A stretch of DNA of 64,000 nucleotides from an uncultured Sulfolobales archaeon (GTDB taxonomy: Archaea > Thermoproteota > Thermoprotei_A > Sulfolobales > NBVN01), in contig CALJEN010000005.1 of assembly GCA_938073905.1 (NCBI GenBank), forward strand, positions 244,088 to 308,087, given 5' to 3'. Every line of letters starts with the position of its first letter. The first letter of the stretch is position 1. The notes beneath the pieces were generated by a model. The model made no database searches and was not told where the DNA came from. It was given only the letters and a program-made list of their open reading frames with translations. The position numbers were made by a program, and so were the translations under genes. Shown here piece after piece: positions 17,324-58,164 of this stretch.

Positions 17324-18616
17324 TTACGATCTTCCGAGGGCTCCCCTGCCAGCGTACCTCGAGTCTCCCGAGAGGTAGTCCTCGATCCTGAGCAGCTCGT
17401 TGTACTTGGACGTCCTCTCGCCCCTAGCCGGGGCACCGGTCTTTATCAGACCGGTGCCGTAGGCCACCGCTATGTGCGCTATCGAGGCGTCCTCAGTCTC
17501 GCCACTCCTGTGGCTCACGATGGCCCTGCCCCCCAGCCTCTTGAGGAGCTCTATCGACTCCTCGGCCTCGACGAGCGTCCCGACCTGGTTGATCTTTACT
17601 ATCGCACCGTCTATAGCTCCCTCGGAGAAGTGCCTGGAGACGAGCTCCGCTCTCGTCACCGTCAGGTCGTCGCCTATGACCAGAGCCCTGCCCCCGAGGG
17701 CCGACCTCAGCTCCCGGAAGTAGTGGGGCTGGTCCTCGGCGAACGGGTCCTCGATGCTGACCACGGGGAACTCGGAGACTATGCTCGCGTAGAGCTCCAG
17801 CAGACCGTCGCTCTCGAGCCTCCTGCCGTCTACTAGGTAGGCCCCGTCGCGGTAGGAGTGGGACGCGGCCGCATCTATGGCTAGTACGAAGTCCTCGCCG
17901 ACCTCGTAGCCAGCCTCCGAGACGGCCCTCGCTATAGCCTCCAGGGCCTCCCTAGTCTCCCTCATCGGTGGAGCGAAGCCCCCCTCGTCCCCCACGTTGA
18001 TGGCCTGCGGTCCGTAGGTCTTCTTGAGGAGCTCCTTCAGGGTCTTGTAGACCTCCACGGCCATCCTGAGGGCTTCGGAGAACGTCGAGGCCCCCACGGG
18101 AGCGACCATGAACTCCTGGAACGAGAGCTCGTTGCCCGCGTGAGCCCCGCCGTTGATTATGTTCATGAGGGGCACCGGGAGAGTCCTCGCGAGCCTCCCC
18201 CCGAGGAACTCGAATAGGGGGAGCCCCGCCGTGTCCGCGGCAGCGTTGACCACGGCCAGAGAGGTGGCGGTCGTGGCGTTGGCGCCCAGCCTGGACTTGT
18301 TCGGCGTCCCGTCGACCTCTATGATCCTCCTGTCGACCTCCCTGAACCTGTGGGAGCTCATCCCGACTATCGCCGGCGCTATGTACCTGTTCACCGCCGC
18401 CACGGCGCTCTCGACGCCCCTGCCGAGGTACCTCCTGCCCCCGTCCCTGAGCTCCACGGCCTCCCTGAGGCCCCGCGATGCTCCGGCGGGGGCCGTGCCC
18501 CTTCCGCAGCCTCCCCCCTTCGTCACCACGACGACCTCGACCGTGGGGTCCCCCCTCGAGTCGAGCACCTGCAGGGCTCTCACGTGCTCTATCGCGAACT
18601 CGGACACCCGCTCCAC
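17324..18616 (-). CDS. eno: enolase (phosphopyruvate hydratase)
   Basis: Contains VLDSRGDPTVEV, SHRSGETED and KTGAPARGERTSKYNELLRIE. The track start at 18682 overlaps the upstream gene. The GTG at 18616 is preceded by GGAGG and gives 430 aa. Confidence 0.92.
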   Translation of the reverse strand: MERVSEFAIEHVRALQVLDSRGDPTVEVVVVTKGGGCGRGTAPAGASRGLREAVELRDGGRRYLGRGVESAVAAVNRYIAPAIVGMSSHRFREVDRRIIEVDGTPNKSRLGANATTATSLAVVNAAADTAGLPLFEFLGGRLARTLPVPLMNIINGGAHAGNELSFQEFMVAPVGASTFSEALRMAVEVYKTLKELLKKTYGPQAINVGDEGGFAPPMRETREALEAIARAVSEAGYEVGEDFVLAIDAAASHSYRDGAYLVDGRRLESDGLLELYASIVSEFPVVSIEDPFAEDQPHYFRELRSALGGRALVIGDDLTVTRAELVSRHFSEGAIDGAIVKINQVGTLVEAEESIELLKRLGGRAIVSHRSGETEDASIAHIAVAYGTGLIKTGAPARGERTSKYNELLRIEDYLSGDSRYAGRGALGRS

Positions 18617-18639
18617 CCGCCTCCTGGTCTCGGTCTCCA

Positions 18640-19275
18640 CTATAAAGACCCCGACCCGAGCAGCCTCTCGGCCTGCCTGCACGCTCTCTCGAGCTTCACC
18701 CTCGACTCGATGTCTATCAGGAGGACTCTCCAGTCGTCGATGACCTTCCGGTAGACGTCGAGCCTCCTCCTGAGCCCGGGGACCACGGGCTCGGCGAAGT
18801 CCAGCTCCGAGAGCCTCTCGTATACCTCCTCGGCTAGCTCGAAGTACCTGAAGCTCTCGGAGTACTCCCCGCTCCTCAGGAGCTCCAGCGAGAGCCTCTT
18901 CAGCTCCCCTATGAGCTCCGCGGTGCCCAGAACGTAGGGTGCGGGGTGGACGCGGAGCTCCTCGGGATCCCCGAGCCTCCCCCTGAAGACAGCGTAGAAG
19001 AGCTGCTGGGCCTCGACGTACTCGGCGGCCACCGAGTAGAAGAGACCGGAGTAGTAGAGCTCGGGGTAGGGGGAGACCCTCTCGACCAGGGACTCGAAGG
19101 CCCTGCTCAGCTCCCGGGCCGCCTCCTCGGCACCCGCCGGGTCTCTCCTGAGGACTCTCGAGACTAGCCTCTTGGAGAGGCGGGATATCTCCCTCCCGCT
19201 CTCGACGAGAGCCTCGCGGGTGGCGTCTAGGTTCGCCAGCCTCTCCTTGAGGGCCTCCAGGCGTAGACCCTCCAA
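18640..19275 (-). CDS. translin-family protein (predicted nucleic-acid binding)
   Basis: 211 aa, all-helical. YVLGTAELIGELKRLSLELLR resembles the archaeal translin-like (COG2178) signature. This rests on recall only. Confidence 0.5.
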   Translation of the reverse strand: MEGLRLEALKERLANLDATREALVESGREISRLSKRLVSRVLRRDPAGAEEAARELSRAFESLVERVSPYPELYYSGLFYSVAAEYVEAQQLFYAVFRGRLGDPEELRVHPAPYVLGTAELIGELKRLSLELLRSGEYSESFRYFELAEEVYERLSELDFAEPVVPGLRRRLDVYRKVIDDWRVLLIDIESRVKLERACRQAERLLGSGSL

Positions 19276-19381: not shown

Positions 19382-19460
19382 GCGGCGGTCGTCCAGCCTG
19401 GTCTAGGACGCCGGCCTTCCACGCCGGAGATCCCGGGTTCAAATCCCGGCCGCCGCACCA
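19382..19460 (+). tRNA. tRNA-Gly (anticodon UCC), CCA encoded
   Basis: Acceptor GCGGCGG/CCGCCGC, D stem GTCC/GGAC, anticodon stem CCGGC/GCCGG, loop CTTCCAC, T arm CCGGG-TTCAAAT-CCCGG, then A-CCA. A TTTTTATG box lies ~35 nt upstream. Confidence 0.9.
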
Positions 19461-19466
19461 CTTTCC

Positions 19467-20564
19467 TCAGAGTCTCAGGCTTTCGATAGTACTGAACAGC
19501 GCTCCTATGCTCTTGCTACCGGGTTTCAGATCGTCAATAACTTTTATCCCCCGACGCTCTAGGTCTCTCTTTACGATGTCCGGGACGCGCTCCAAAGACG
19601 CGATTATGAAGTTGTTGGGCTTGAATTTCTCTAGGTACGGTAAAATCTGTGATCGAATCTCTTTCTCCCACTTATCAAACGGGTCTTCTTTGCACTCCAC
19701 GATCAGGTCTATAGGCTTCCCGGAGCGGATGAAATTGCTGGTCCCCTCAAAATGACCCTTTACTACGACGATATCTGGTCTGATTGGGACTCGTTTCCCT
19801 GAAAACATGCTCATTACATGTGCGGTCCTGCTCGGTTGAAATTCGAGCCAAAAGGTTAAATCGCCAAAAGGGGTCTCAGCGATACACGTACTGAACCCCG
19901 ATCCTTGCTCGATCCACCAATACGCTCTTCCTTCAAATAAGTGCTCTTTGAACTTAGAAACTTTGAAAGCGTCGCACAACAGTTTAAGCACCCAGAGCTG
20001 GTATATCCGCTTTCGTGTATTTTTCAGACCCGTTATTCTCCTCCTATCGTCCGGCAGACTCATGAATGTGAAGTAGTACACCTCAGGGTCTTCGAACGCG
20101 TCCCACAACCTTGCTCCCCCTAACCTAATTTCAACGTCTCGCGCTCTCCCGTACTCCTTAACTTCACGGATCATTGGAACAAACACCCGCTCAAACTGCG
20201 TTAGAAGGGACAGCAACGTGGGATCTTTAACGCGAAATCTCAGACCACGTATCTCGTGGATGCGTTTCCTAATTGGTTCATAGTATTCCCACTTTTTAGG
20301 AACTCCCCGTTCGAAATCTTCAATTCTACATTTACATAGAAACCCCACGCCACTCCCTGAGAAGTCAAAGCAGTGTAGTACCTTCCCCGCGACTTTGTCC
20401 ACGGGGATTTCATAAACGACCTCATCCTTGTACTCGCCCGGTAGCTCCCTAACAGCGTAATCGCCTATGTGCACGAGCTCTCTTCCTTCCACAACATAGA
20501 TGTAAGATCCGCCTCTCGTACCCCTGCCCTTGATTTCTCTGACCGTTACTGTCCTCGATTCCAC
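19467..20564 (-). CDS. orphan protein with C-terminal PD-(D/E)xK (restriction-endonuclease-like) motif, on a low-GC island
   Basis: 365-aa GTG-start ORF. RPDIVVVKGH...(~20 aa)...IDLIVECKED fits D-(D/E)xK spacing. Local GC is 37-48% against 62-68% in the flanks, and it uses AAA/GAA/ATT-type codons. Confidence 0.7.
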   Translation of the reverse strand: MESRTVTVREIKGRGTRGGSYIYVVEGRELVHIGDYAVRELPGEYKDEVVYEIPVDKVAGKVLHCFDFSGSGVGFLCKCRIEDFERGVPKKWEYYEPIRKRIHEIRGLRFRVKDPTLLSLLTQFERVFVPMIREVKEYGRARDVEIRLGGARLWDAFEDPEVYYFTFMSLPDDRRRITGLKNTRKRIYQLWVLKLLCDAFKVSKFKEHLFEGRAYWWIEQGSGFSTCIAETPFGDLTFWLEFQPSRTAHVMSMFSGKRVPIRPDIVVVKGHFEGTSNFIRSGKPIDLIVECKEDPFDKWEKEIRSQILPYLEKFKPNNFIIASLERVPDIVKRDLERRGIKVIDDLKPGSKSIGALFSTIESLRL

Positions 20565-20627
20565 AGCTAATCCTTCGAGCTTTCCGGATTTAAGCCTACA
20601 CGCACTGTCCGCTACTGCCTGCGGGAG

Positions 20628-21992
20628 ATGAAGGAGCCCTACAGGCTCGACTGGAGGGACGTGGCGGCGCTGATCGAGGCCGTGCTGAGAGCGGAGTCTG
20701 TCAAGCCCTCCCAGCAGGCCAAGAGGGACGCGTTCAGGAAGTTCGGGGTGCTGGGGACTAGGAGGGACCCGCCGCTGACGGCCATCTTCTACGACATCAT
20801 GCTCAGGCTGGGAGTGATAGACAGAGTAGTAGAGGACTTGACGGGCTCCAGGAGCCCCCTGCTCCTCGACCCGAGGCTCAGGGCGGCACTCAGGGTCTTC
20901 GCCTACCTGGAGCTATTCGCCAGGGGCGGGGTGGAGTACACCAGGAAGCTCGAGTGCCTGAAGAGAACGGCCGCCTGGCTCTCCTCCAGGTCTCACCCCT
21001 ACACGGGCATGTGGTTCGTCGACGCGGTCAAGGGGCTATCCGGCTACGAGCTCGCCCCCAGGTCGCCGGACGACGAGCTGATGTTCAGGTACCTGCTCCC
21101 GCCGTGGTACGTCAGGAAGGTCTTCGAGCTCGTGGGTCCCGGCGAGGCCGAGAGGCTGCTCGAGTCCTTCGCCGAGAGGCCCAAGATAAGCGTGAGGGTG
21201 AACGTGCTCAAGGCCACGGTCCGGGAGGTCGCGGAGAAGCTGAGGGCAGAGGGGAAGGAGCCCGAGGTCTCGGCGGTAGTCCCGACGGTCCTGAAGTTCG
21301 ACGGTCCCTACAACTTCGACAAGTCCGAGCTCTTCAGGAGCGGGAAGATAGTTATCCAGGAGGAGCCGGCCGCCCTGGCCTCCCTGATACTAGACCCGAA
21401 GCCGGGCGAGACCGTCGTAGACCTAGCGGCGGCGCCCGGGGGCAAGACAGAGCACATGGGGGAGCTCATGGGGAACCGGGGCACCATCTACGCGTTCGAC
21501 GTCGACGAGACCAGGATGAGGAGGCTCGAGGAGCTGGTGAGGAGAGCGGGGATAACAATCGTGAAGACGTTCGTCCGCGACGGCAGGGAGGCGCCGAGGG
21601 TGCTCGGTGAGGAGGTGGCGGACAGGGTGCTGGTCGACGCACCGTGCTCCTCCGACGGCACTATAGCCAGGAACCCCGACCTGAGGTGGAGGCTGATGGA
21701 GGGAGAGGTGGCGAAGCTGGCCCAGCTCCAGTACGAGCTGCTGAAGGCCGCGCTCAGGCTCGTGAAGCCGGGCGGGCGCATACTCTACACCACCTGCACT
21801 CTGCTCAGGGAGGAGAACGAGGACGTGGTCGGGAGGCTCCTCGAGAAGGAGGGCAGGAGGGTCAGGCTGATCTCCCTCGAGGGCCCCTACTCCCCCGGCC
21901 TCCTGCCAGGCACCATGAGGGCGTGGCCGCACGTCCACAAGACCATAGGCTTCTTCTTCGCACTGCTGGAGAAGGCCCGGAGCGGGAGCTGA
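20628..21992 (+). CDS. RNA cytosine-C5 methyltransferase, NOL1/NOP2/Sun (RsmB) family
   Basis: 454 aa with the SAM motif VVDLAAAPGGKT and catalytic motifs DAPCSSDGT and YTTCTL. Confidence 0.9.
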   Translation: MKEPYRLDWRDVAALIEAVLRAESVKPSQQAKRDAFRKFGVLGTRRDPPLTAIFYDIMLRLGVIDRVVEDLTGSRSPLLLDPRLRAALRVFAYLELFARGGVEYTRKLECLKRTAAWLSSRSHPYTGMWFVDAVKGLSGYELAPRSPDDELMFRYLLPPWYVRKVFELVGPGEAERLLESFAERPKISVRVNVLKATVREVAEKLRAEGKEPEVSAVVPTVLKFDGPYNFDKSELFRSGKIVIQEEPAALASLILDPKPGETVVDLAAAPGGKTEHMGELMGNRGTIYAFDVDETRMRRLEELVRRAGITIVKTFVRDGREAPRVLGEEVADRVLVDAPCSSDGTIARNPDLRWRLMEGEVAKLAQLQYELLKAALRLVKPGGRILYTTCTLLREENEDVVGRLLEKEGRRVRLISLEGPYSPGLLPGTMRAWPHVHKTIGFFFALLEKARSGS

Positions 21993-30145: not shown

Positions 30146-30236
30146 AGGGCCCGTAGCTCAGCCAGGTGGAGCGGCGGACGGCAGGCCGAGGCTCTTAACC
30201 CGTAGGTCCCGGGTTCAAATCCCGGCGGGCCCGCCA
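30146..30236 (+). tRNA. tRNA-Lys (anticodon CUU) with a 14-nt intron in the anticodon stem (non-canonical position), CCA encoded
   Basis: Very similar to tRNA-Lys(UUU) at 6184-6260 (a few substitutions besides the anticodon). The exception is an insertion ACGGGCAGGCCGAG after GGCGG (stem position ~29/30-30/31). Removing it restores stem GCGGG/CCCGT and loop CTCTTAA. A GCTTTTAAG box lies ~30 nt upstream. Confidence 0.85.
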
Positions 30237-49171: not shown

Positions 49172-50212
49172 TCACCACGGCGCGACGAAGGGGGTATACT
49201 CCTTCTCTCCCATGAGGTGCTTCTCCAGCTTGTACAGCTCGATCCTTATGAGCCTCCTGTACGACGCCCGCGCTCCCTTCCTGTAGGTGATCGTCTGCCT
49301 GAGCTTGTTCTCGTACTGCTCCACGAAGATCCTCCTCCCCTGCTCGCTGAGGTACACACCGCCCAGCTCCTCCATGAAGTGCGTGCGGTCCAGCATCCGC
49401 TTGTTCACCAGCGCGAATATGAGCCTATCCACTATCACGGGCTTGAAGACCTCGGCAACATCCAAGTTTAGCGAGAACCGCCTGAGGCTCGCCGAGTGCA
49501 GGTAACCTATCCTCGGGTCCAGGTGCGTCTTGTATATCTCGCTCAGCACCGTTGCGTAGAGGAGGCTGTTCCCGAAGCTCAGCAGAGCATCCAGCCGGCT
49601 TCCGGGCGGCCTCCTCTCCCTTCCCCGGTAGTGGAAGTCCGGGTCGCTAATGATCGCGTTGAACGAGGTGTAGTATCGCTCCCTGGCCTGCCCCTCGATG
49701 GCCATGGCCTCCTCCACCGTGGAAGCGGAGCCTAGGCGCGAGAGGGCCCTCTCGAGGAACTCGACCGTCTCGCCCAGCTTCTCCCTCCCGTACTCCAGCG
49801 CGCTCTCGGACGTTTCCCTGTTCCGGCTCCGGCTGACGTAGTAGGCGACGTTCTTCAGCATGTTCTTCACACTGCCCTCGACGAATTTGCGGGCCAGGAG
49901 CAGTCTCTTCGAGTAGTCTAGGTAGTGCTCGCACTGCTTCAGAGTCATGAACCCGGAGCTGTAGAACACCCGCGGGTAGTAGCTTCCCACGTAGTAACCG
50001 TAGCGGTTGAAGAAGTGCAGCGTGATCCTCTTGGCCGCGAGAAACTCCAGCAACCTCTTGTTGATGGTCACCTCGCCGAGTATGTACAGGGAGGAGACCT
50101 CGGCGACCGGTACGTACTTCTTCTCGCCGTCGGGCTTTACGAGGCACAGGGTGTTCGCCTCCCGCTTTAACCTCCCGGAGCTGAAGATGTAGAGGGCCTT
50201 CTTCACGTTCAC
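49172..50212 (-). CDS. cas1: CRISPR-associated integrase Cas1
   Basis: About 346 aa from GTG at 50212 (GTGA overlap with the cas4 stop). Cas1 signatures include ALLSFGNSLLY, GYLHS and VFKPVIVDR. Confidence 0.92.
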   Translation of the reverse strand: MNVKKALYIFSSGRLKREANTLCLVKPDGEKKYVPVAEVSSLYILGEVTINKRLLEFLAAKRITLHFFNRYGYYVGSYYPRVFYSSGFMTLKQCEHYLDYSKRLLLARKFVEGSVKNMLKNVAYYVSRSRNRETSESALEYGREKLGETVEFLERALSRLGSASTVEEAMAIEGQARERYYTSFNAIISDPDFHYRGRERRPPGSRLDALLSFGNSLLYATVLSEIYKTHLDPRIGYLHSASLRRFSLNLDVAEVFKPVIVDRLIFALVNKRMLDRTHFMEELGGVYLSEQGRRIFVEQYENKLRQTITYRKGARASYRRLIRIELYKLEKHLMGEKEYTPFVAPW

Positions 50213-50736
50213 GCCCAGCAGAAATCCCTGTACGCGCACCTCCTGCAGTATGGAGTTCTGGCGGGCGGCGGAGGACGCTCCAGCCGCACGATCTCCCTTA
50301 TGTCGTCGAGGACCCCGAGAAGGGTGCTCTCGCTATCCTCGTCGAGCCTCACGCGTATCCTCCTCTTCTCTCTGGGCACCAAGATCTCTCCGACCATGTC
50401 CACACCGTACTCCTTGAGCCTGTAGAGGTAGTAGAGAAGCTGAAACCGTGTCGCTTGGAGGTACCTCGACGAGGTTTTGACCTCGCACACGACCCTCCTC
50501 CCCCTTCTGAACACGTCGATCTTCATGCCCTCCAGAGACACCTCTCTTAGCGCATCGCGGTAGAACACCTCGTGGATGGCTCTACCCATCTCTAGAGCTC
50601 GGTCCTCCTCGTCGGGGGCTATCCCGCGGCTCATGAGCCACACTTCGCGCTTGCAGATGAAGTAGTACCAGACCATAGTCCCCGTAATCGGTCTGCCGGA
50701 GGGAAGCATGTACGGTGGCGTTTCGCCGTGCGACAT
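50209..50736 (-). CDS. cas4: CRISPR-associated exonuclease Cas4 (RecB-like, 4-Cys)
   Basis: YYFICKREVWL (N-terminal Cys), EVKTSSR (nuclease Lys) and the C-terminal CRRCAYRDFC. ATG at 50736 avoids overlap with cas3; the track start at 50817 overlaps it. Confidence 0.88.
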   Translation of the reverse strand: MSHGETPPYMLPSGRPITGTMVWYYFICKREVWLMSRGIAPDEEDRALEMGRAIHEVFYRDALREVSLEGMKIDVFRRGRRVVCEVKTSSRYLQATRFQLLYYLYRLKEYGVDMVGEILVPREKRRIRVRLDEDSESTLLGVLDDIREIVRLERPPPPARTPYCRRCAYRDFCWA

Positions 50737-50746
50737 GGGATCACGG

Positions 50747-53188
50747 CTAGAGTATGGTGGGCTCCAGCTCTCCATCTCTTGCGTCCCTGAACCCCGTTTC
50801 CGGGTCGTAAAACGCACGCACCTCGCTGCGAGGCACGTACAGTATCCCGAGTCTTCGGTGAGGCTCGAGACTTCTTAGCGACTCGTCGCTCTTGTACACC
50901 TCCACCGTGTAGTTCTCCAGCTCAGCCCGCAGCCTCCTCAGCTCCGCCCTCAGCCCGAAGACCTTCTCCAAGTCCTCTTCCTCCCTCAGGTCTTCTAGGA
51001 GCTCGGACGCTCTCTCCAGGATCTCGCTTGCGCGCTCATCGTACTCTACGTAGACCGGAACCTTCGGCTCTTCCTCTATGAGCGAGAAGTCGGCCAGCCC
51101 CTCGAACTCCAAGCCCGTTATCTTGTCTATCCAGCGCCTGCTTCCCTCACTCGCCCTCACGTTTATCCTATAGGAGATATCCTCGTAGTACTTGTCGATT
51201 AGTCCGGCAAGCTCGCTCTCCTTCACCGCTCCCTTGCCTCTCAAGAGCTCAAGAGTCCTCGGAGGGAGCACCTTGCCGTATATCCTCACGGAATCCTCGA
51301 CCCCCTTCTCGCCCGCGACCCTGACTACGTAGACTCTACCCTCCGGAAGCCTGCCGTTCCTGTTGCACCTACCGGACGTCTGGACGATAGAGTCCAGGGG
51401 GCCCAGGTCCCTGAACGCGATGTCGAAGTCTAAGTCGACGCCGGCCTCCACTACCTGCGTCGACACCAGTATCACGCTCCGCCCCTCCCTCAGCAGTCTC
51501 TTCACCAGCTCGATCCTCCTCTTCCTCTCGAGAGGGAGGACGCTCGTGGACAAGTACGCGAGCACTACCTTCGGCGAGCCGAGCACCTCCTCGTCCGAAG
51601 AGCGCCCTACCCTGACTGCTCTGTCTCCCAGCCTCTCCGCCAGCATTCTGTACACTCTCTTGGATGTCCTCACGGTGTTGAGGACGACGAGGGCTGACGA
51701 GCCCTCCCTCCATTTGGAGAGGAAGAACTCTACGAGCTCCTCGGCGCTCATTTCCCTGTCGAGGTGGGGGTAGATGACCATCCTGTTCAGCTGACCGAAG
51801 TACCTATCTCTGTTGGCTACTAGCTCGACCGCGCTCCTTTTACTACCGAAGCTCTCCCTAAATATAGCCGGCATCGTGGCCGTCATTAGTATTATCTTGA
51901 CGCCGAGGTGCTCCGCCAGGTATAGCAGCGCGTCCCTCACGAGCCTCCAGTACTCGTAGGGGATAGCCTGGACCTCGTCCAGTATGAGAATGGAGTCGGC
52001 TATGTTGTGAAACTTCTTCAGCAGAGAGTTCCTCGACCCGATGATAGACCTCAGGAGCTGCTCGAACGTCGTGACGACGAGCTGCGAATCCCATGCATCG
52101 ACTAGGAGCAGCAGCTCGTCGAGAGGCCTCTCGTGGTTTTCCCCGGATGCTGGGAAGGCCTGGTGGTGGTGCTTCAGGAGAGTAAACGCGTCGGGCCTCT
52201 TCCCGTAGTAGGTCATCAGAACGTCCTCGAAGACCGAGTGCGTCTGCTCTATGATATTTATGTAAGGTAGGGAGTACACTATCCTCGAGTGCTTGGTGCG
52301 CTCCATGAGCCTCAGCGCAACGTATAGGCCCAGCAAGGTCTTTCCGGAGCCCGTCGGTGCGGTGATCGTGATCACGCTGGGGAGGTCGCCTCTCAGCAGC
52401 TCCTCGAGGCTCCTCTCGACCTCCGAGAACAGGCTCCTCCTGAGGGCGTGCATCCCCCGGGGGTCTTCCTGGGTGAACTTTTCTCGTATGTACCTCGTAA
52501 CGATGTCCGGTCGTAGAACCTCGGTGCGCTCCACGCGTCCGACCCTTCCCGCATCCTTCTTGTCCGCATCGATGAGAGCCGAGAAAACCAGCAGTGTGTA
52601 GTAGTACAGCCGCCAGAGCTCACTCTCGTCCATATATGTCATGGCTCTGAACGCTTCCTCCAACCGGGCGCTCACATCCTTCAGGGAGGCGTCGAGATCG
52701 TCTATGAAGTCCACGGCCTCCGATATGCCTATCTCAGCGAGCTCTCGAGAGACTGTGCCCAGGTTCTTCTTGAGAGAGTCTACCTGCTTTTCTAAGAAGG
52801 TCTTGTCTCGGTTGATTGCTCTAATCCTCTCGGGCAGCGCACTAAAACCAGTGAGGTTTCCATGGTGAGAGCGCACGCAGACGAACCCCATAGCGCTCAG
52901 GAGGGGGTTTTTGAGCCTCCTTGCCGCGAGCCAGGACGCGATGATGGAGGAGAGGTGGGAGTGCTTGTGGAGCTCTCCCTCCGCTTTTCCGTACTTCAAA
53001 TAATCTTGGAAGTAGGTCGTATACTTAGCCACATCGTGGCTCTTGCCGACGAGCTCGGCTAGCTCGGCTATCTTCGGGTCTCTCTCCTCGACTACCTTTA
53101 GGACGTACTCCTTGCTGAGCTCCCCTACTCCCCTGAGGTGGTCCTTCAGCAGTACCCATTTATGCGAGTAAAACTCGCTGAACGTCAC
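50747..53188 (-). CDS. cas3: Cas3 HD-nuclease/helicase fusion
   Basis: 813 aa. N-terminal HD domain (GKSHDVAKY, HSHLSS, VRSHHGNL) followed by helicase motifs APTGSGKT, ILDEVQ and QVVEAGVDLDFD. Confidence 0.92.
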   Translation of the reverse strand: MTFSEFYSHKWVLLKDHLRGVGELSKEYVLKVVEERDPKIAELAELVGKSHDVAKYTTYFQDYLKYGKAEGELHKHSHLSSIIASWLAARRLKNPLLSAMGFVCVRSHHGNLTGFSALPERIRAINRDKTFLEKQVDSLKKNLGTVSRELAEIGISEAVDFIDDLDASLKDVSARLEEAFRAMTYMDESELWRLYYYTLLVFSALIDADKKDAGRVGRVERTEVLRPDIVTRYIREKFTQEDPRGMHALRRSLFSEVERSLEELLRGDLPSVITITAPTGSGKTLLGLYVALRLMERTKHSRIVYSLPYINIIEQTHSVFEDVLMTYYGKRPDAFTLLKHHHQAFPASGENHERPLDELLLLVDAWDSQLVVTTFEQLLRSIIGSRNSLLKKFHNIADSILILDEVQAIPYEYWRLVRDALLYLAEHLGVKIILMTATMPAIFRESFGSKRSAVELVANRDRYFGQLNRMVIYPHLDREMSAEELVEFFLSKWREGSSALVVLNTVRTSKRVYRMLAERLGDRAVRVGRSSDEEVLGSPKVVLAYLSTSVLPLERKRRIELVKRLLREGRSVILVSTQVVEAGVDLDFDIAFRDLGPLDSIVQTSGRCNRNGRLPEGRVYVVRVAGEKGVEDSVRIYGKVLPPRTLELLRGKGAVKESELAGLIDKYYEDISYRINVRASEGSRRWIDKITGLEFEGLADFSLIEEEPKVPVYVEYDERASEILERASELLEDLREEEDLEKVFGLRAELRRLRAELENYTVEVYKSDESLRSLEPHRRLGILYVPRSEVRAFYDPETGFRDARDGELEPTIL

Positions 53189-53925
53189 ATGAAAACTCCC
53201 ACGACTTTTCCTCCATCAACAGCGCACTCGAACACTTCGCCGTCTATCAAGACCTTCAGGGGCCTCCCTCTACCCTCGTATACGTAGGTTTCTAGCCTCT
53301 TCGGCTTTCGATTTTCGTCGAACTCCGCGGGCACCGATTCCTCTCTGAATATCTCTCGGTCCTCCTGGGGGTATATCTTTTTAACCATCGAGAGGGGTAT
53401 CACCGTGCTCACCTCGACTTCACCGTCGGGTCTGTAGAGCTTAGCGTCCACGTAATCTACGAACTCCACCTCCGCTAGATTGTTGGCAGTGCCGAGAGAC
53501 GGGGGATAGGCGAACTTATGCCTCCTCGCTCTATCCGTGAGCTCCTCTAACAGTCTCCCATCCACGTGGTTGAAGAAGATTCTGTACACCAGCTGCTCGA
53601 GCCGGCTTTCTCCCGAGAGGAGCGTGTCGACGCGTATGATGGCACGTACCTCCATCCCCCGGAGCTTCTTCAGCGTGAGCGGCCTGTCCGTCATCAAGTA
53701 GTTCAGGGTGTTTGTAGAGCGCCTCACCGGCGACCTGATCTGCAGAGCTATCCTGCTTCTGTCTGACGAGAAGAGAGAATAGTAAGAGTCCCTGCCGTAA
53801 CCGAGCATAGCTGCTATCATTCCAGCAATCGTAGTCCTCGGCGGAAACGCGTAACTGAGGGAGCTCGTCGTGGAGTAGTGCTTCCTGAAGTGTCCAAAAA
53901 AGCCTTTAACGTCAAAGATCAGCAA
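53185..53925 (-). CDS. cas5: Cas5 (type I-B class)
   Basis: 246 aa with N-terminus FDVKGFFGHFRKHYSTTSSLSYAFPPRTTIAGMIAAMLG, typical of Cas5. Confidence 0.88.
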   Translation of the reverse strand: MLIFDVKGFFGHFRKHYSTTSSLSYAFPPRTTIAGMIAAMLGYGRDSYYSLFSSDRSRIALQIRSPVRRSTNTLNYLMTDRPLTLKKLRGMEVRAIIRVDTLLSGESRLEQLVYRIFFNHVDGRLLEELTDRARRHKFAYPPSLGTANNLAEVEFVDYVDAKLYRPDGEVEVSTVIPLSMVKKIYPQEDREIFREESVPAEFDENRKPKRLETYVYEGRGRPLKVLIDGEVFECAVDGGKVVGVFM

Positions 53926-53933
53926 TCTTGCAC

Positions 53934-54947
53934 TCAGATCAGGCCCCCCCTCCTCTCGAATGGCCCGATTATGGCAGCCCTAATCTCCTCCTCTCTTAGT
54001 TCGTGCGGGAGCAGTCCTACAAGCTGCGCGCCGAGCCCCTTTTTGATCGACTCTACCAGGTACTCCAGCTCTTTGCTCGTTCTGACGTATACTCTGGATA
54101 TGAGGTCCTTGTTGCTCTTCAGGTGGTCCAATAGCTTGTCGAACTTTATGTCCAAGTCCTTGAAGTCTCTTATCGCCTTGCCCTCTTTCGGGTTGACCTC
54201 GACGAACTTGCGCAGATCTCCGAGGACCGTGTCGGCGTCCCTATACTCGACCCTGAGGTAGAGGTGCGGCATCTCGCCGATCTTGCTCCGCGTCGTCGGC
54301 TGAACCTGGAGGGCCGTCCACATGAAGTTGTCGAATATCTTGAGGTCCGTCTCCGTCATCCCCGTCACCCTCGCCCTCCTGCCGCTCACGACCCCGTAGA
54401 ACGCTATCAGCGAGTAGTATACACGCCAGTCCTTGCCCATCGTGCCGTACCTCTCCGCGAGCTCCCTGCCTGCGAACACCGAGGTTATCGTCGAAGACTC
54501 CACAAGCTCAACTTCATGGAGGGAGAACCCCCACGTGAACTGCACTGGACCCACGAGCGATACAGACTCGCCCCTCTCCTCACCGCCAATCGGTAGAACG
54601 GCTCCGAAGAGACGCGCATCTATCAGCTGCCTAAGCACCTCGAGGGCTCGCGTAACTCTCTCTTCCTTACTCTTGAAGCCTACGCCGAGCTTCTTCGCCA
54701 GCTCCTCGAATCTTTTGTCAGCTCTAACGCTTACGCCGCCGAGCTTCGTCACGTAGACGTAGTCCTCGCCGTACCTCTCGACGAGGTAGTCTCTGAAGAA
54801 CCTCTTCAGCCTGACGTCCGAGACCAGGTTTATGTTAGTCTTCGGATCTATCCTCGGCCTGTTCTCCGCGTCCGGGTCGCCGTTGGGATTGCACATCTTT
54901 GCCTCGTAGATGAGCAGGATTTCGCTGTTGGGAAGACCCTCTTTCAA
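53934..54947 (-). CDS. cas7: Cas7 backbone subunit (Csh2/Csd2-like)
   Basis: 337 aa with YEAKMCNPNGDPDAENRPRIDP...VSDVRLKRFFRDY, a typical Cas7 I-B/I-C N-terminus. Confidence 0.88.
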   Translation of the reverse strand: MKEGLPNSEILLIYEAKMCNPNGDPDAENRPRIDPKTNINLVSDVRLKRFFRDYLVERYGEDYVYVTKLGGVSVRADKRFEELAKKLGVGFKSKEERVTRALEVLRQLIDARLFGAVLPIGGEERGESVSLVGPVQFTWGFSLHEVELVESSTITSVFAGRELAERYGTMGKDWRVYYSLIAFYGVVSGRRARVTGMTETDLKIFDNFMWTALQVQPTTRSKIGEMPHLYLRVEYRDADTVLGDLRKFVEVNPKEGKAIRDFKDLDIKFDKLLDHLKSNKDLISRVYVRTSKELEYLVESIKKGLGAQLVGLLPHELREEEIRAAIIGPFERRGGLI

Positions 54948-56866
54948 CTCCTCTCACCCCGCTCACTCTGCTGCGAAGCGCGCCCGCGTGTAATGTGTCG
55001 GAGGGTTATATAGGCGTAGCCGGAAAGTATGTAGAACACGTTGTCCACCGGATCGCCGGGCACCTTAAGGCTCTCGTCGAGCAACCTCTTCATGTTAGCG
55101 TATATAGCTTCGGTGTATCTGTCGAGTATTCTGTAGTTCCTCAGACCCTCGAGCACGTAGTTAGCGAGCATCTTCACTCTCTCGTCCGACATTCCATCAA
55201 AGTTTATCTTGTTGAGCACCGACTTCTTCTCATCGCCCTTATTGTACTGCTCTATCCCTATTCTACCGACAAGGACTCCCAGCAGGAAGAGCGCCGTCTG
55301 GCGCTTTGTGTACCCCATCACGGAGACGAAGTGCTCGATGTCTTCGGGAAGTCCCGACCCTGAGAGATCCGGCTTCTCGCCTCTCTCCGGCTCTATAATG
55401 CCCATCTGCTCTCCCAACCTCAACAGCACGCTGTACTTTAAAATGTTCCTACATAGACCCGCTTCTCCGTCCTTCGGCGGCCTTACGCTGTACCCTTCGT
55501 ACGTACCGTATCTGATTATCCTTGCGAAGAGGACGGCCTTGGAGACGACGGTCTTCCTTGGATACTTGGTGCCCATGATCATGGAATTGTATAGCTCGAC
55601 CAGAGGCTTCCACTCCACTGCCTGTCCCCTTACGGTTCTCAAGGGGAACATGTTGTAGATGTCCTCGAAACCGATCGACCATCTTTCAGCAGACTCGTGG
55701 AAGATGTCAGCGACCTCGCTTGAAACGTTGCTGAGAGTGTCGGCCAGCTCGACCAGTCTCATTATGGGGACGTCCTGTATGTAGTACTGGTAAGCGAAAT
55801 CCGAGCGTCCCGGAGACCCGAAAACTATGTCCAGGAAGTAGAGACCTCCTGCTTTCCTTGCAAGGTCGTCTAAGAGGATCTTCAGGACGTCTTCCGCTTT
55901 CCTTAAGTTCTCCAGGGTCTTGACAGCGTCGAACACGCTCCCCACCTCCTTTTTGACCTTGTCTAGAGTGCGGTAAGAGAGCTCGAGCCCTACGACCCTG
56001 GGTATCAAGTAGACCGTAAGTTTACCGATCTTCGAACTCAGGTTTCTCTCGACATAATTGTAGCCGAGGACAACTTTCTTCTTGCAGTCCGGGCACACCG
56101 CGTGCGCCCTGAGCAAGTTCTCGGGCTCCTCGCTCAGATTGGGCATGAAGCCGGCCTTATCGGTGTTATAGATCTTTAGTAGCGTCCCCTCCGGGTAGGC
56201 TGGATCCGCCAGTACGAGCCCCTCCCTGCCACAAACGTGACATCTCCCCGTCCTTCTGAGACCAGACTCATAGTCCCTCTTCTCCCTCCTCTTGGAACCG
56301 GACTCGTACAGCACGTGACGGAGGAACTCCCTGTAGCCCGGTAGCCTGGTTAGGTCGACTACCTCCCCCCTCCGCCTTACGGATACCGTGTAGAGAACCA
56401 ATTGCTGAGGATCGCACCCCCTCCTACGGAGAAGCTCCTCGAACTCCTGGAGCAACGATTCTCTCTTACTGAAGAACTTCTCACTAATTTTAGCGAGGAG
56501 GTCGTAGAGTTCTCTAATGTGCGGCCTTCTGTGAAGCTCCTTTCTCTCTATCTCCTCCACTATCGCCCCGATGGCCCATTTGTGGGGCGTGAACCTCTCT
56601 AGTAGGTACTCCCGTCTATCGGTAGTGAGCATCAGTTGAGGCTTATTCCCTCTAGCGTTTCCAACCCAGAGGAATTCCCTGGCCCTCTCCTCGTCGCATC
56701 TGATGAGGCAGTCGCAATCCAGCTCCCCGGCATCGATGTCGAAGATGATCTTGGCGAGCAGGGGCTCCTCTACATCCTCTTCTTTAGGAACCCTCCTAAT
56801 AGGGAACTCTACCTCGCCCTCGCGGCTGGTCAGAACTTCGCCGATCTCCTTTAGAGCTTCGAGCAT
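54944..56866 (-). CDS. cas8b: Cas8b-like large subunit (TM1802/Csh1-like)
   Basis: 640 aa in the position between cas6 and cas7. Zn-ribbon-like CHVCGREG...CPDCKKK. The family call is from recall plus gene order. Confidence 0.7.
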   Translation of the reverse strand: MLEALKEIGEVLTSREGEVEFPIRRVPKEEDVEEPLLAKIIFDIDAGELDCDCLIRCDEERAREFLWVGNARGNKPQLMLTTDRREYLLERFTPHKWAIGAIVEEIERKELHRRPHIRELYDLLAKISEKFFSKRESLLQEFEELLRRRGCDPQQLVLYTVSVRRRGEVVDLTRLPGYREFLRHVLYESGSKRREKRDYESGLRRTGRCHVCGREGLVLADPAYPEGTLLKIYNTDKAGFMPNLSEEPENLLRAHAVCPDCKKKVVLGYNYVERNLSSKIGKLTVYLIPRVVGLELSYRTLDKVKKEVGSVFDAVKTLENLRKAEDVLKILLDDLARKAGGLYFLDIVFGSPGRSDFAYQYYIQDVPIMRLVELADTLSNVSSEVADIFHESAERWSIGFEDIYNMFPLRTVRGQAVEWKPLVELYNSMIMGTKYPRKTVVSKAVLFARIIRYGTYEGYSVRPPKDGEAGLCRNILKYSVLLRLGEQMGIIEPERGEKPDLSGSGLPEDIEHFVSVMGYTKRQTALFLLGVLVGRIGIEQYNKGDEKKSVLNKINFDGMSDERVKMLANYVLEGLRNYRILDRYTEAIYANMKRLLDESLKVPGDPVDNVFYILSGYAYITLRHITRGRASQQSERGERS

Positions 56867-56914
56867 AACGCCACCTCGAGACGTCCTTGCCGCTATTTAT
56901 TTGCCAGCCACTTT

Positions 56915-57652
56915 TTAAGTGCGCTGCACCACCTCCAGCATGCCGAAGCCCTGGGAGTTCTTCGCTCCCAGGCCGGCTTCGTAGACCGTCAGTATGAGGG
57001 ACTTGGGGCCCCTCAGGACGAAGCTGCCCGTCCAGCCCCTCACTATCGTGCCCTTGTAGGACACGAAGACCTCCCTCACTTTCAGGGGCTCCACCTCGAT
57101 GTCCGACTTGATGCTCCTGCCGGTGAGGACGTAGTGCTTCTTCTTAGCGTTGGAGCTCGCGAGCTTCGAGAACTCCCTCTCGTACGGCGAGTAGTAGTAG
57201 GTCTTCCTCCTCCCGTCTGGGGTGTAGAGGGTGCTGTACACTGTGACCGGGGACAGGGTGCGCACCTCCACCTCGCTCCCGATCGGCGGCGTAGGGGGGA
57301 AGGAAACCCCGACAACGTCCAGCCTGTTCCCGATGACGAGGTAGCCTCTCCTCAGGATGGTGCCCGCGAGCTCCTCGACGAGCCTCTCTACCGGGGACGA
57401 GACGTAGAGAGTCACGTCGCCCTCGTAGACGAGCCGCCCGGCCCCCCTGTCGAGCGCGAAGCGCCCCAGGAGCCTCGAGAACGTGAACATCTTGAACCTC
57501 CTCTTGCCGTAGGGGAAGCCCCTGTCGTGCAGGAAGGACGAGAGGCTCTCCGAGAGGCTGTTGTATATTGCCGCCTGGACTAGGTGGTTGTAGCTCACGG
57601 GGACGACGGCTCTGCCTCCCTCGGGGCTCCTCAGTGTTATCCGCATCCTCAA
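56915..57652 (-). CDS. cas6: Cas6 crRNA endoribonuclease
   Basis: 245 aa with the C-terminal glycine-rich loop GLGAKNSQGFGMLEV. A GCTTAATATAGC box lies ~40 nt upstream on the minus strand. Confidence 0.9.
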   Translation of the reverse strand: MRMRITLRSPEGGRAVVPVSYNHLVQAAIYNSLSESLSSFLHDRGFPYGKRRFKMFTFSRLLGRFALDRGAGRLVYEGDVTLYVSSPVERLVEELAGTILRRGYLVIGNRLDVVGVSFPPTPPIGSEVEVRTLSPVTVYSTLYTPDGRRKTYYYSPYEREFSKLASSNAKKKHYVLTGRSIKSDIEVEPLKVREVFVSYKGTIVRGWTGSFVLRGPKSLILTVYEAGLGAKNSQGFGMLEVVQRT

Positions 57653-57811: not shown

Positions 57812-58164
57812 GTCGCTAGAGTACCTACAAGGGTTTGAAACCACTAACCCCAGGATACCCCCGATAGCCTCGGGTCGTCGCTAGAGTACCTACAAGGGTT
57901 TGAAACAAGCCGATAGTCAGGACTCTCGCGGAGCTGATGGCGGGTCGCTAGAGTACCTACAAGGGTTTGAAACGGTTAAGGGGCGGCTAGGGGTTAGGGA
58001 GGAAAAAGCTGGTCGCTAGAGTACCTACAAGGGTTTGAAACCGTCCTCCCCCGAGGAGGGGGCAGGTAATACCTGGCGTCGCTAGAGTACCTACAAGGGT
58101 TTGAAACATGCCGGTTTAAGGCTATAAAATGGAAGGTCGCTAGAGTACCTACAAGGGTTTAAAC
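57812..58164 (+). CRISPR. CRISPR array 3: 5 intact repeats plus 1 degenerate terminal repeat, 5 spacers
   Basis: GTCGCTAGAGTACCTACAAGGGTTTGAAAC at 57812, 57877, 57944, 58012 and 58078. The terminal 29-nt copy at 58136 reads ...GGGTTTAAAC. Spacers are 35, 37, 38, 36 and 28 nt. Confidence 0.95.

Follow-up and report, generated by a model that had tools for sequence, protein, structure and literature searches.

In a 64,000-nucleotide stretch of the genome of an uncultured Sulfolobales archaeon (assembly GCA_938073905.1, contig CALJEN010000005.1, positions 244,088 to 308,087; referred to here as the window), a single gene of low G+C content (GC) lies between tRNA-Gly(UCC) and a gene for an NSUN-type RNA methyltransferase. 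This island gene is a foreign, one-gene insertion that is missing at the same position in three related genomes, and it encodes a member of a conserved protein family with a predicted nuclease-type fold and a nuclease-type motif, homologues of which are found in defence islands and on integrase-bearing elements. We propose, with a probability of about 50%, that the island protein is a self-contained, mobile, solitary endonuclease of the defence type.

The island gene is the sole long open reading frame (ORF) between the tRNA and the NSUN gene, and its stop codon lies 6 nucleotides (nt) from the end of tRNA-Gly(UCC) (Table 1). In windows of 300 nt, GC amounts to 0.47–0.49 over positions 19500-20550 in comparison to 0.63–0.67 on either side. 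With a GC of 0.488 versus 0.627 for the whole 64 kb, the island forms the deepest GC trough of the window, approximately 3.8 standard deviations under the mean of 0.627 when 1-kb windows are used. Third-codon-position GC is 0.55 in the island gene and 0.83–0.91 in four neighbouring genes, and AAA makes up 15/28 of its lysine codons versus 0/39 in the three nearest genes, where GAA (15/33 in the island gene) and ATT (6/28) occur in 1/113 and 0 cases. Both the drop in GC directly after the tRNA and the switch to codons of the AAA/GAA/ATT type had been described in a first-pass annotation made from the sequence alone; its manual counts of 22/60, 37/60 and 41/60 were exact, while positions 19501-19560 contain 30/60 rather than 29/60. 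The Logan read assembly ERR9287632 (locus L001) is 100% identical to window positions 19431-21524, and since this independent assembly spans both junctions, the island is not an assembly chimera.

The comparison with the three related genomes (L024, L025 and L026), of which L024 is the closest, defined the insertion at its borders. The NSUN protein of the window marks the host as an archaeon of the Sulfolobales/Desulfurococcaceae type. It is 85%, 77% and 77% identical to its counterparts, and the order enolase, translin-like gene, tRNA-Gly(UCC) and NSUN is kept in all three genomes, with the island gene missing. Their tRNA-to-NSUN spacers measure 574, 168 and 109 nt and contain no ORF, as against 1167 nt in the window, and no remnant of the island gene was found in them by tblastn. 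The comparison of this junction, which the first-pass annotation had named as a check, thus revealed no orthologue at the syntenic position in 3/3 relatives and bore out its description of a solitary gene of foreign composition next to the 3' end of tRNA-Gly. Because the relatives keep the same gene order without the island gene, the island is a lineage-specific insertion of one gene. In the blastn alignment with L024 (83–84% nucleotide identity), homology stops at window position 19458 and restarts at 20619. The trailer CTTTCC that follows the tRNA at 19461-19466 is, however, common to the window, L025 and L026, so that the true left edge of the insertion is probably position 19467, at the stop codon, and the foreign piece would therefore comprise the island ORF and approximately 54 nt upstream of it. 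The island is best explained by a recent horizontal transfer that brought a single intact gene into a variable tRNA-Gly(UCC)/NSUN spacer. Homologues elsewhere mostly have a GC of 30–46%, near or slightly under that of their hosts, which together with the 15-point mismatch in the window suggests a recent arrival from a donor of lower GC.

Several further differences were observed around this spacer. The body of tRNA-Gly(UCC) occupies positions 19382-19457 (Rfam RF00005, 66.3 bits) and is followed by a genomically encoded CCA (19458-19460). The CCA is not encoded in the three relatives, whose orthologous tRNA genes end in ...GCA/CTG, ...GCA/CTT and ...GCA/TTT (the slash marks the end of the tRNA); this 3-nt difference falls exactly on the insertion junction. 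The tRNA-Gly/NSUN spacer of L024 (4427-4991, about 565–574 nt) is GC-rich, has neither an ORF nor an Rfam match and resembles neither the window nor the other relatives. Owing to this unrelated content, the 3' flank of tRNA-Gly is a variable hotspot in the lineage. Another variable spot lies nearby in L026 (6823-9062): a short way downstream of NSUN, the genes for ribosomal S30 and Nop10 are separated by an insert of approximately 2.5 kb with small unannotated ORFs of 96, 260, 61, 59 and 43 amino acids (aa). On the right side of the island, the intergenic region between the two divergent genes contains an A/T-rich box, ATTTAAG (20588-20594), at a distance of about 25–35 nt from the start codons of both the island gene and NSUN. 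This box may be a TATA-like element shared by the two genes; TATA-like boxes are present upstream of NSUN at a similar distance in L024-L026. The NSUN gene, homologues of which carry Pfam PF01189/PF22458, is syntenic in these relatives without the island gene and is not a partner of the nuclease.

The assignment of the island protein to the nucleases relies on conservation and on structure prediction. The protein was aligned with 45 homologues, all full length and with the same start position; a second set comprised 69 distant family members. Nineteen columns are invariant in the 46 sequences (R176, W191, W216, Q220, G221, W239, E241, Q243, H249, R262, P263, D264, E290, C291, K292, W299, Q306, Y310 and S323), and R176, P263, D264, K292 and Y310 are at least 90% conserved in the distant members. 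An AlphaFold2 model with the 46-sequence alignment as input reached a predicted local distance difference test score (pLDDT) of 92.2 and a predicted template-modelling score (pTM) of 0.91. In this model, the order of strands and helices in residues 205-365 is compatible with the alpha-beta-beta-beta-alpha-beta core of PD-(D/E)xK nucleases, P263-D264 (D264 is encoded at 19773-19775) precedes strand 265-269, and E290-x-K292 (E290-C291-K292 at 19689-19697) lies within strand 287-292. The latter is followed by helix 302-314, which carries the invariant Q306 and Y310 of a RecB-type QxxxY motif. The top Foldseek matches in the Protein Data Bank (PDB) were almost all PD-(D/E)xK nucleases with probabilities of up to 0.99–1.0, namely Cdn1 (E 1.9e-3, probability 0.99), PspGI, VC1899, Can2, BbvCI, NucS and EcoO109I, and weak matches in BFVD were Mrr/restriction endonucleases. 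The model and the conserved catalytic residues thus support a PD-(D/E)xK-type nuclease domain in the C-terminal third of the protein. The two motifs on which the first-pass annotation had based the same assignment were confirmed: RPDIVVVKGH spans residues 262-271 and IDLIVECKED residues 285-294.

The N-terminal part had been described as unrecognisable in the same annotation, and this description held. A separate model of residues 1-205 reached a pLDDT of 94.7 and matched no solved fold, the best Foldseek hits in the PDB being generic beta-sandwiches with E 0.04. Neither Foldseek nor Pfam revealed an SRA, PUA/EVE/ASCH, YTH, Mrr-N winged-helix or DUF262 domain in this half. It is nevertheless conserved, with the motif RGTRGG.Y.YVVEG..L.H and the residues G15, T16, G18, Y21, Y23, E26, H32, Y36, K61, F66 and F68 in the beta-rich domain. 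The distant members P0085, P0212, P0348 and P0349 possess an extra N-terminal helical domain of approximately 150–180 aa, which has a conserved NPRF(R/K)..(K/R).Y.D.IA.AF motif and no Pfam match.

Contrary to its first designation as an orphan, the island protein belongs to a sizeable family. A search of 5.8 billion proteins yielded 82 homologues with 35–68% identity; most of them align along their entire length at 50–68%, and a second tier reaches 35–46%. HMMER, run exhaustively against 1.84 billion cluster representatives, gave 173 clusters at 50% identity. All homologues are unnamed or termed "hypothetical protein", and a profile search of the 5.8 billion proteins with a diverse alignment found no named relatives. 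Among 185,579 species-representative genomes, 11 loci were identified, all of them archaeal. Carriers belong to Thermoprotei, Thermoplasmata, Korarchaeota, Desulfurococcaceae, Methanodesulfokora, Nitrososphaerales, Methanomethylicia, Nanopusillaceae and Methanolliviera; two short contigs with a homologue are labelled as bacterial metagenome-assembled genomes. Across phyla, family members share 54–62% identity, a value equal to or above that of the housekeeping NSUN protein across orders. Together with the patchy distribution, this argues for a horizontal spread of the family.

The island protein has no match in Pfam or NCBIfam even at E<=10 and matches 0 families of PADLOC-DB v2.0.0 at the same threshold, and searches of 46–69 family members against Pfam, NCBIfam, PADLOC and PHROGs gave nothing above threshold. 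Among Pfam models, only HSDR_N_2 (PF13588) recurs in family members, at scores below threshold and aligned exactly on the motif region; it was seen in P0074 (19.7 bits, cut-off 25) and in 8/69 distant members. PDB sequence searches with the single sequence and with two profiles returned nothing or chance matches to LOV domains. A precomputed match to Pfam PF27477 (Y4bO_3rd) is classified as merely "faint", and no publication on PF27477 was found. Taken together, the sequence data describe a family that is uncurated, rare, mostly archaeal and conserved under selection.

The genomic neighbourhoods of the homologues were compared in approximately 22 non-redundant contexts, collected from 11 genome loci, 60 metagenome loci and lookups of the encoding contigs. 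In many of them, recognised defence genes lie within a few kilobases of the homologue. A prokaryotic Argonaute (pAgo) gene is located directly downstream of the homologue in L038-40 and the gene of an Orf5/HEC-06/SspE-like (GmrSD-type) protein directly upstream in L037, while a 1291-aa DpdJ/DrmA-like helicase and a Cas4-like nuclease are encoded beside the homologue of L016. Methylases of the Eco57I/MmeI type (1050–1247 aa) adjoin the homologues of L008/L053 and L075, which are mutually only 29% identical. The loci of P0028 form a fluid island with a PglX-like methylase, BrxL, PLD, MazE, a 985-aa helicase and a Piwi protein, and in L003 a trio of PLD, DUF1998/MZB and a large helicase is found near the homologue. 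A scan of the pooled neighbours detected DrmA (E=0) and DrmB (4e-198), matches that by inference belong to this trio; the 116 pooled neighbours also include Avs2 (E=0), a type IIG enzyme (E=0), a TdeIII-type enzyme and subunits of type I restriction-modification systems. L019 and L022 are integrase-bearing elements full of unannotated small ORFs. The idea of defence or mobile-element cargo, already raised in the first-pass annotation, is supported by these contexts, and because homologues often sit among antiviral defence genes, a defence role is suggested for the island gene as well.

No universal partner family emerged from an all-against-all clustering of 469 neighbour ORFs. Small divergent ORFs upstream of the homologues are conserved only among near-identical loci, and the co-oriented upstream genes of L038 and L064 have no PDB matches. 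In the window, the island harbours no methyltransferase, integrase or partner gene, in agreement with the first-pass annotation, and homologues of every recurrent neighbour family were sought in the 64 kb and not found. Single-gene insertions were also observed elsewhere: in L009, the homologue is flanked by the genes for EF-2 and a P-type ATPase, at 0.5 kb on the 3' side of tRNA-Gly(CCC), with lowered GC and no tRNA-end repeat detected by a search at this locus; in L011, the flanking genes encode an M24 peptidase and a racemase. P0038 (366 aa) is found together with the same two small upstream ORFs in two downstream contexts, which consist of housekeeping genes in L002/L004 and of a DISARM-like trio (PLD, DUF1998 and helicase) in L003. 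As the identical protein has two different downstream contexts, recombination breakpoints lie right at the gene.

Further neighbours were recorded. A 125-aa ORF with a Pfam match to the TATA-binding protein (TBP) lies approximately 0.5–0.9 kb upstream of the homologue in the defence island of L087-L092, where L087 has small ORFs in place of the PglX-like methylase of L088/L089. An unannotated family of 343–383 aa, termed C4, recurs in three lineages (L010/L057, L038-40 and L047), and adjoins either Argonaute, accompanied by a 578-aa protein, or an unannotated protein of 634–658 aa (C20). In two of these lineages, the C4 gene and that of the homologue are arranged tail-to-tail. The C4, C20 and 578-aa proteins have no Pfam or PADLOC matches, and the C4-containing set may be an undescribed Argonaute-type module. 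Finally, a protein of 169–329 aa, the N-terminus of which resembles proteasome-beta/Ntn hydrolases by eye (TL..GVVVA(A/S)D(T/S)R), is encoded 0.1–2.5 kb from the homologue in varying orientation in L013/L082, L047, L062, L081 and L083/L084; these homologues are only 26–56% identical to the island protein, and the proximity may stem from common chromosomal synteny or from a functional link.

Apart from a solitary defence nuclease, the association with defence genes might point to a nuclease that serves a multi-gene system (based on Argonaute, BREX-like proteins or helicases) as accessory or effector and that is orphaned and partner-less in the window. Four core-clade lineages with 54–62% mutual identity are located 0.1–7 kb from a pAgo gene or from the C4-type gene that accompanies it, PglX-like Eco57I methylases recur beside homologues as divergent as 32% identity, and homologous large helicases flank the homologue in L016 and L090. 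However, these modules lie at differing distances and in differing orientations (tail-to-tail, or 3.6–4.8 kb with intervening genes), every neighbour family is confined to a minority of contexts, the copies of the window, L009 and L011 occur as single genes amid housekeeping genes, and identical P0038 is found with and without the DISARM-like trio. We regard a role as an accessory nuclease as unlikely, and to the same degree a selfish or mobile-element nuclease (homing-like, or involved in recombination or maintenance) that was left by a decayed tRNA-integrated element and provides no benefit to the host. The latter would fit the position at a tRNA 3' end, which is a classic integration target, with L009 as a second case, the homologues 3–7 kb from large tyrosine integrases amid unannotated small ORFs and the clean one-gene insertions in several genomes. 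Like tRNA-associated genomic islands, the insertion consists of low-GC foreign DNA that starts at a tRNA 3' end, and homologues reside on integrase-bearing elements elsewhere; unlike them, it comprises one gene only and lacks an integrase, further cargo and a directly repeated tRNA end. A homologue of the L022 integrase was not found in the window by tblastn, the 26 nt of the tRNA-Gly 3' end have no second copy in the 64 kb at <=3 mismatches, and no convincing repeats flank the island, those within the region looking like chance. The earlier suggestion of a remnant of an integrated element was therefore not sustained, as the window holds neither an att repeat nor an integrase. In addition, a tRNA is nearby in only 1/46 other loci, and homologues are absent from IMG/VR contigs, GenBank phages, PLSDB plasmids and PHROGs, all of which were searched. 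The sites of the single-gene insertions (tRNA/NSUN, EF-2/ATPase and peptidase/racemase) are unrelated, which argues against site-specific homing, and this variant was rejected. An insertion sequence element was rejected as well, since the 6-nt and 63-nt flanks of the gene leave no room for terminal repeats.

Still less probable is a conventional type II restriction endonuclease with a cognate methyltransferase that is encoded elsewhere in the genome or was lost. The fold matches include the type II enzymes PspGI, BbvCI and EcoO109I, and DNA methylases adjoin some homologues. PspGI, which also originates from a hyperthermophilic archaeon, was matched with E 4.6e-3 and probability 0.97, and PspGI/EcoRII-C-type enzymes, BbvCI and EcoO109I share the restriction-endonuclease-like catalytic fold with the island protein. 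In contrast, identity to PspGI-type enzymes is 10% with a target-normalised template-modelling (TM) score of 0.39, the conserved N-terminal region of approximately 200 aa has no counterpart in type II enzymes, and no cognate methyltransferase accompanies the island gene in the window. Moreover, the adjoining methylases are 1050–1247-aa Eco57I/MmeI/PglX-type proteins or type I subunits and belong to self-contained systems, most contexts including the window are without an adjacent methylase, and the whole architecture with its N-terminal domain is strongly conserved, unlike that of fast-diverging type II enzymes. A housekeeping nuclease of DNA repair or recombination, NucS- or Hjc-like, is a highly improbable explanation. 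NucS combines a beta-rich N-terminal domain with a RecB-like PD-(D/E)xK domain that has a QxxxY motif. It is among the weak fold matches, and the island protein likewise has a beta-rich N-terminus as well as the succession of D...ExK and a QxxxY helix (Q306, Y310) known from NucS/EndoMS and the RecB/Cas4 family. Nevertheless, the match to NucS is poor (E 0.09, TM 0.17–0.25), the composition of the gene is foreign, and it is missing at the syntenic site in three close relatives and present in only 11 of 185,579 species genomes; on account of this non-housekeeping distribution, a repair nuclease is effectively excluded. Cas4 was rejected, as the four-cysteine Fe-S cluster of the Cas4/AddB type is missing (only C197 and C291 are conserved); the Pfam models Cas_Cas4 and PDDEXK_1 have no match in the island protein.

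The solitary defence endonuclease that we favour would act in two steps. The N-terminal 200 residues would serve in target selection or in sensing, responding either to an infection signal or to some feature of foreign nucleic acid, and the metal-dependent C-terminal PD-(D/E)xK domain would then cut the target with a putative active site composed of E241, D264, E290-x-K292 and the RecB-like QxxxY motif. The enzyme would operate without a cognate methyltransferase, in the manner of a type IV or solitary restriction nuclease. Enzymes of this kind (Mrr, MspJI-type) resemble the island protein in the combination of a non-catalytic N-terminal domain with a C-terminal D...(D/E)xK domain, in the absence of a cognate methyltransferase, in their patchy horizontal distribution and in their location in defence islands. 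They differ in that the N-terminal domain of the island protein is, according to Foldseek, not winged-helix, SRA or PUA/EVE-like; the nearest model of the Pfam PDDEXK clan is the above-mentioned HSDR_N_2, under threshold and in other family members only. A modification-dependent, type IV-like mode is plausible, but no more than that, because the N-terminal half shows no known fold of a modified-base reader. The best structural matches were Can2/Card1/Cdn1 (PDB 8z4i, 9u49, 7bdv and 1xmx; E 1.9e-3 to 6e-3, probability 0.85–1.0), which have a comparable two-module layout of an N-terminal sensor and a C-terminal PD-(D/E)xK domain of similar size. In these effectors of type III CRISPR systems, a Rossmann-fold CARF sensor binds cyclic oligoadenylates and thereby activates the nuclease (PMC12825302). 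The N-terminus of the island protein, in contrast, consists of 9 beta-strands and long helices without similarity to CARF, and a CARF effector was rejected on account of this different fold. Type III CRISPR genes (Cas10/Csm/Cmr) or cyclases were not found among the top neighbour families of the homologues.

A number of observations weigh against a solitary defence endonuclease. The copies of the window, L009 and L011 have no defence neighbours, and the association with defence islands is guilt by association from raw counts of contexts. In its present host, the gene might be poorly expressed owing to its strongly deviating codon usage. No Foldseek match in the PDB fell under E 1e-3, with whole-model TM scores of only about 0.3 (about 0.25–0.3 for Can2/Card1/Cdn1), and the N-terminal half is unlike the known DNA-modification readers and sensors in this comparison. 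No model of Pfam, NCBIfam, PADLOC or PHROGs is reached by the island protein, and the members of the family are known from sequences, models and contexts alone.

Table 1. Positions of the island gene, its predicted domains and its borders in the 64,000-nt window.
Feature	Position	Strand	Basis or remark
Enolase gene	17324-18682		Synteny anchor together with the translin-like gene
Translin-like gene	18640-19275	-	Native; upstream of tRNA-Gly(UCC); synteny anchor
tRNA-Gly(UCC)	19382-19460	+	ARAGORN; native; left border of the insertion
Foreign insertion, 1160 nt	19459-20618	.	Stretch without homology to the closest relative L024 (blastn)
Island gene, 365 aa, GTG start, TGA stop	19467-20564	-	ORF list; three-part nuclease-family protein
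Residues 205-365, predicted PD-(D/E)xK nuclease domain	19470-19952	-	Model, Foldseek, weak HSDR_N_2
Residues 241-310, predicted catalytic core: E241, R262-P263-D264, E290-C291-K292, Q306...Y310 (QxxxY)	19635-19844	-	
Residues 113-204, helical region with long helices 115-141 and 173-199	19953-20228	-	Models; R176 and W191 invariant
Residues 1-112, beta-rich N-terminal domain, 9 strands	20229-20564	-	DSSP of models
Divergent intergenic region between island gene and NSUN, 63 nt	20565-20627	.	Direct sequence reading
RsmB/NOP (NSUN-type) RNA m5C methyltransferase gene	20628-21992	+	Native; right border of the insertion

Other features of the window were noted. A type I CRISPR-Cas operon with slightly lowered GC (0.54–0.60) occupies positions 49172-57652 of the reverse strand, approximately 30 kb from the island and without a link to it. 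Its ORF 50747-53188 matches Cas3 structures (8g9u_P, E 6.9e-43), the ORFs 53185-53925, 53934-54947, 56915-57652 and 49172-50239 look by eye like Cas5, Cas7, Cas6 and Cas1, and the ORF 54944-56866 (640 aa), which has no PDB match, may encode Cas8. Directly beside the operon, at positions 57942-58107, a 68-nt unit is repeated in tandem 2.5 times, which could represent the start of a CRISPR array with units of repeat and spacer. At 30147-30236, ARAGORN reported a 90-nt "tRNA-???" with a two-base anticodon, and similar calls were obtained in L024 (9501-9588) and L026 (10758-10847); the window feature is probably an intron-containing archaeal tRNA that was mis-parsed by the bacterial-mode scan.

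Antiviral immunity of archaea is much less charted than that of bacteria. Nucleases in defence islands are a known class in which uncharacterised cases are common, and the new part here is the unmatched N-terminal module in a well-defined archaeal family. With approximately 170 clusters, this family is strongly conserved and recurs with Argonaute, BREX-like, DISARM-like and restriction-modification genes, although neither Pfam, NCBIfam and PADLOC nor the PDB includes it, and the fold of half of the protein is unmatched. If the island protein were the mere passenger nuclease of a decayed element, the finding would be ordinary. Should it prove to be a stand-alone defence nuclease, it would represent a new single-gene system with a new module for target recognition, and the thermostable enzyme might find use as a reagent. 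In this respect, the window amounts to a clean natural experiment, as close relatives lack the gene at this locus and the borders of the insertion are known to a few nucleotides. More tentatively, and with a clearly lower probability than the solitary nuclease as such, the family may be the sole component of an undescribed single-gene immune system of archaea, in which a new N-terminal sensor or recognition fold gates a RecB-like PD-(D/E)xK domain. In that case, the window would represent a natural one-gene "knock-in" of this system next to tRNA-Gly.

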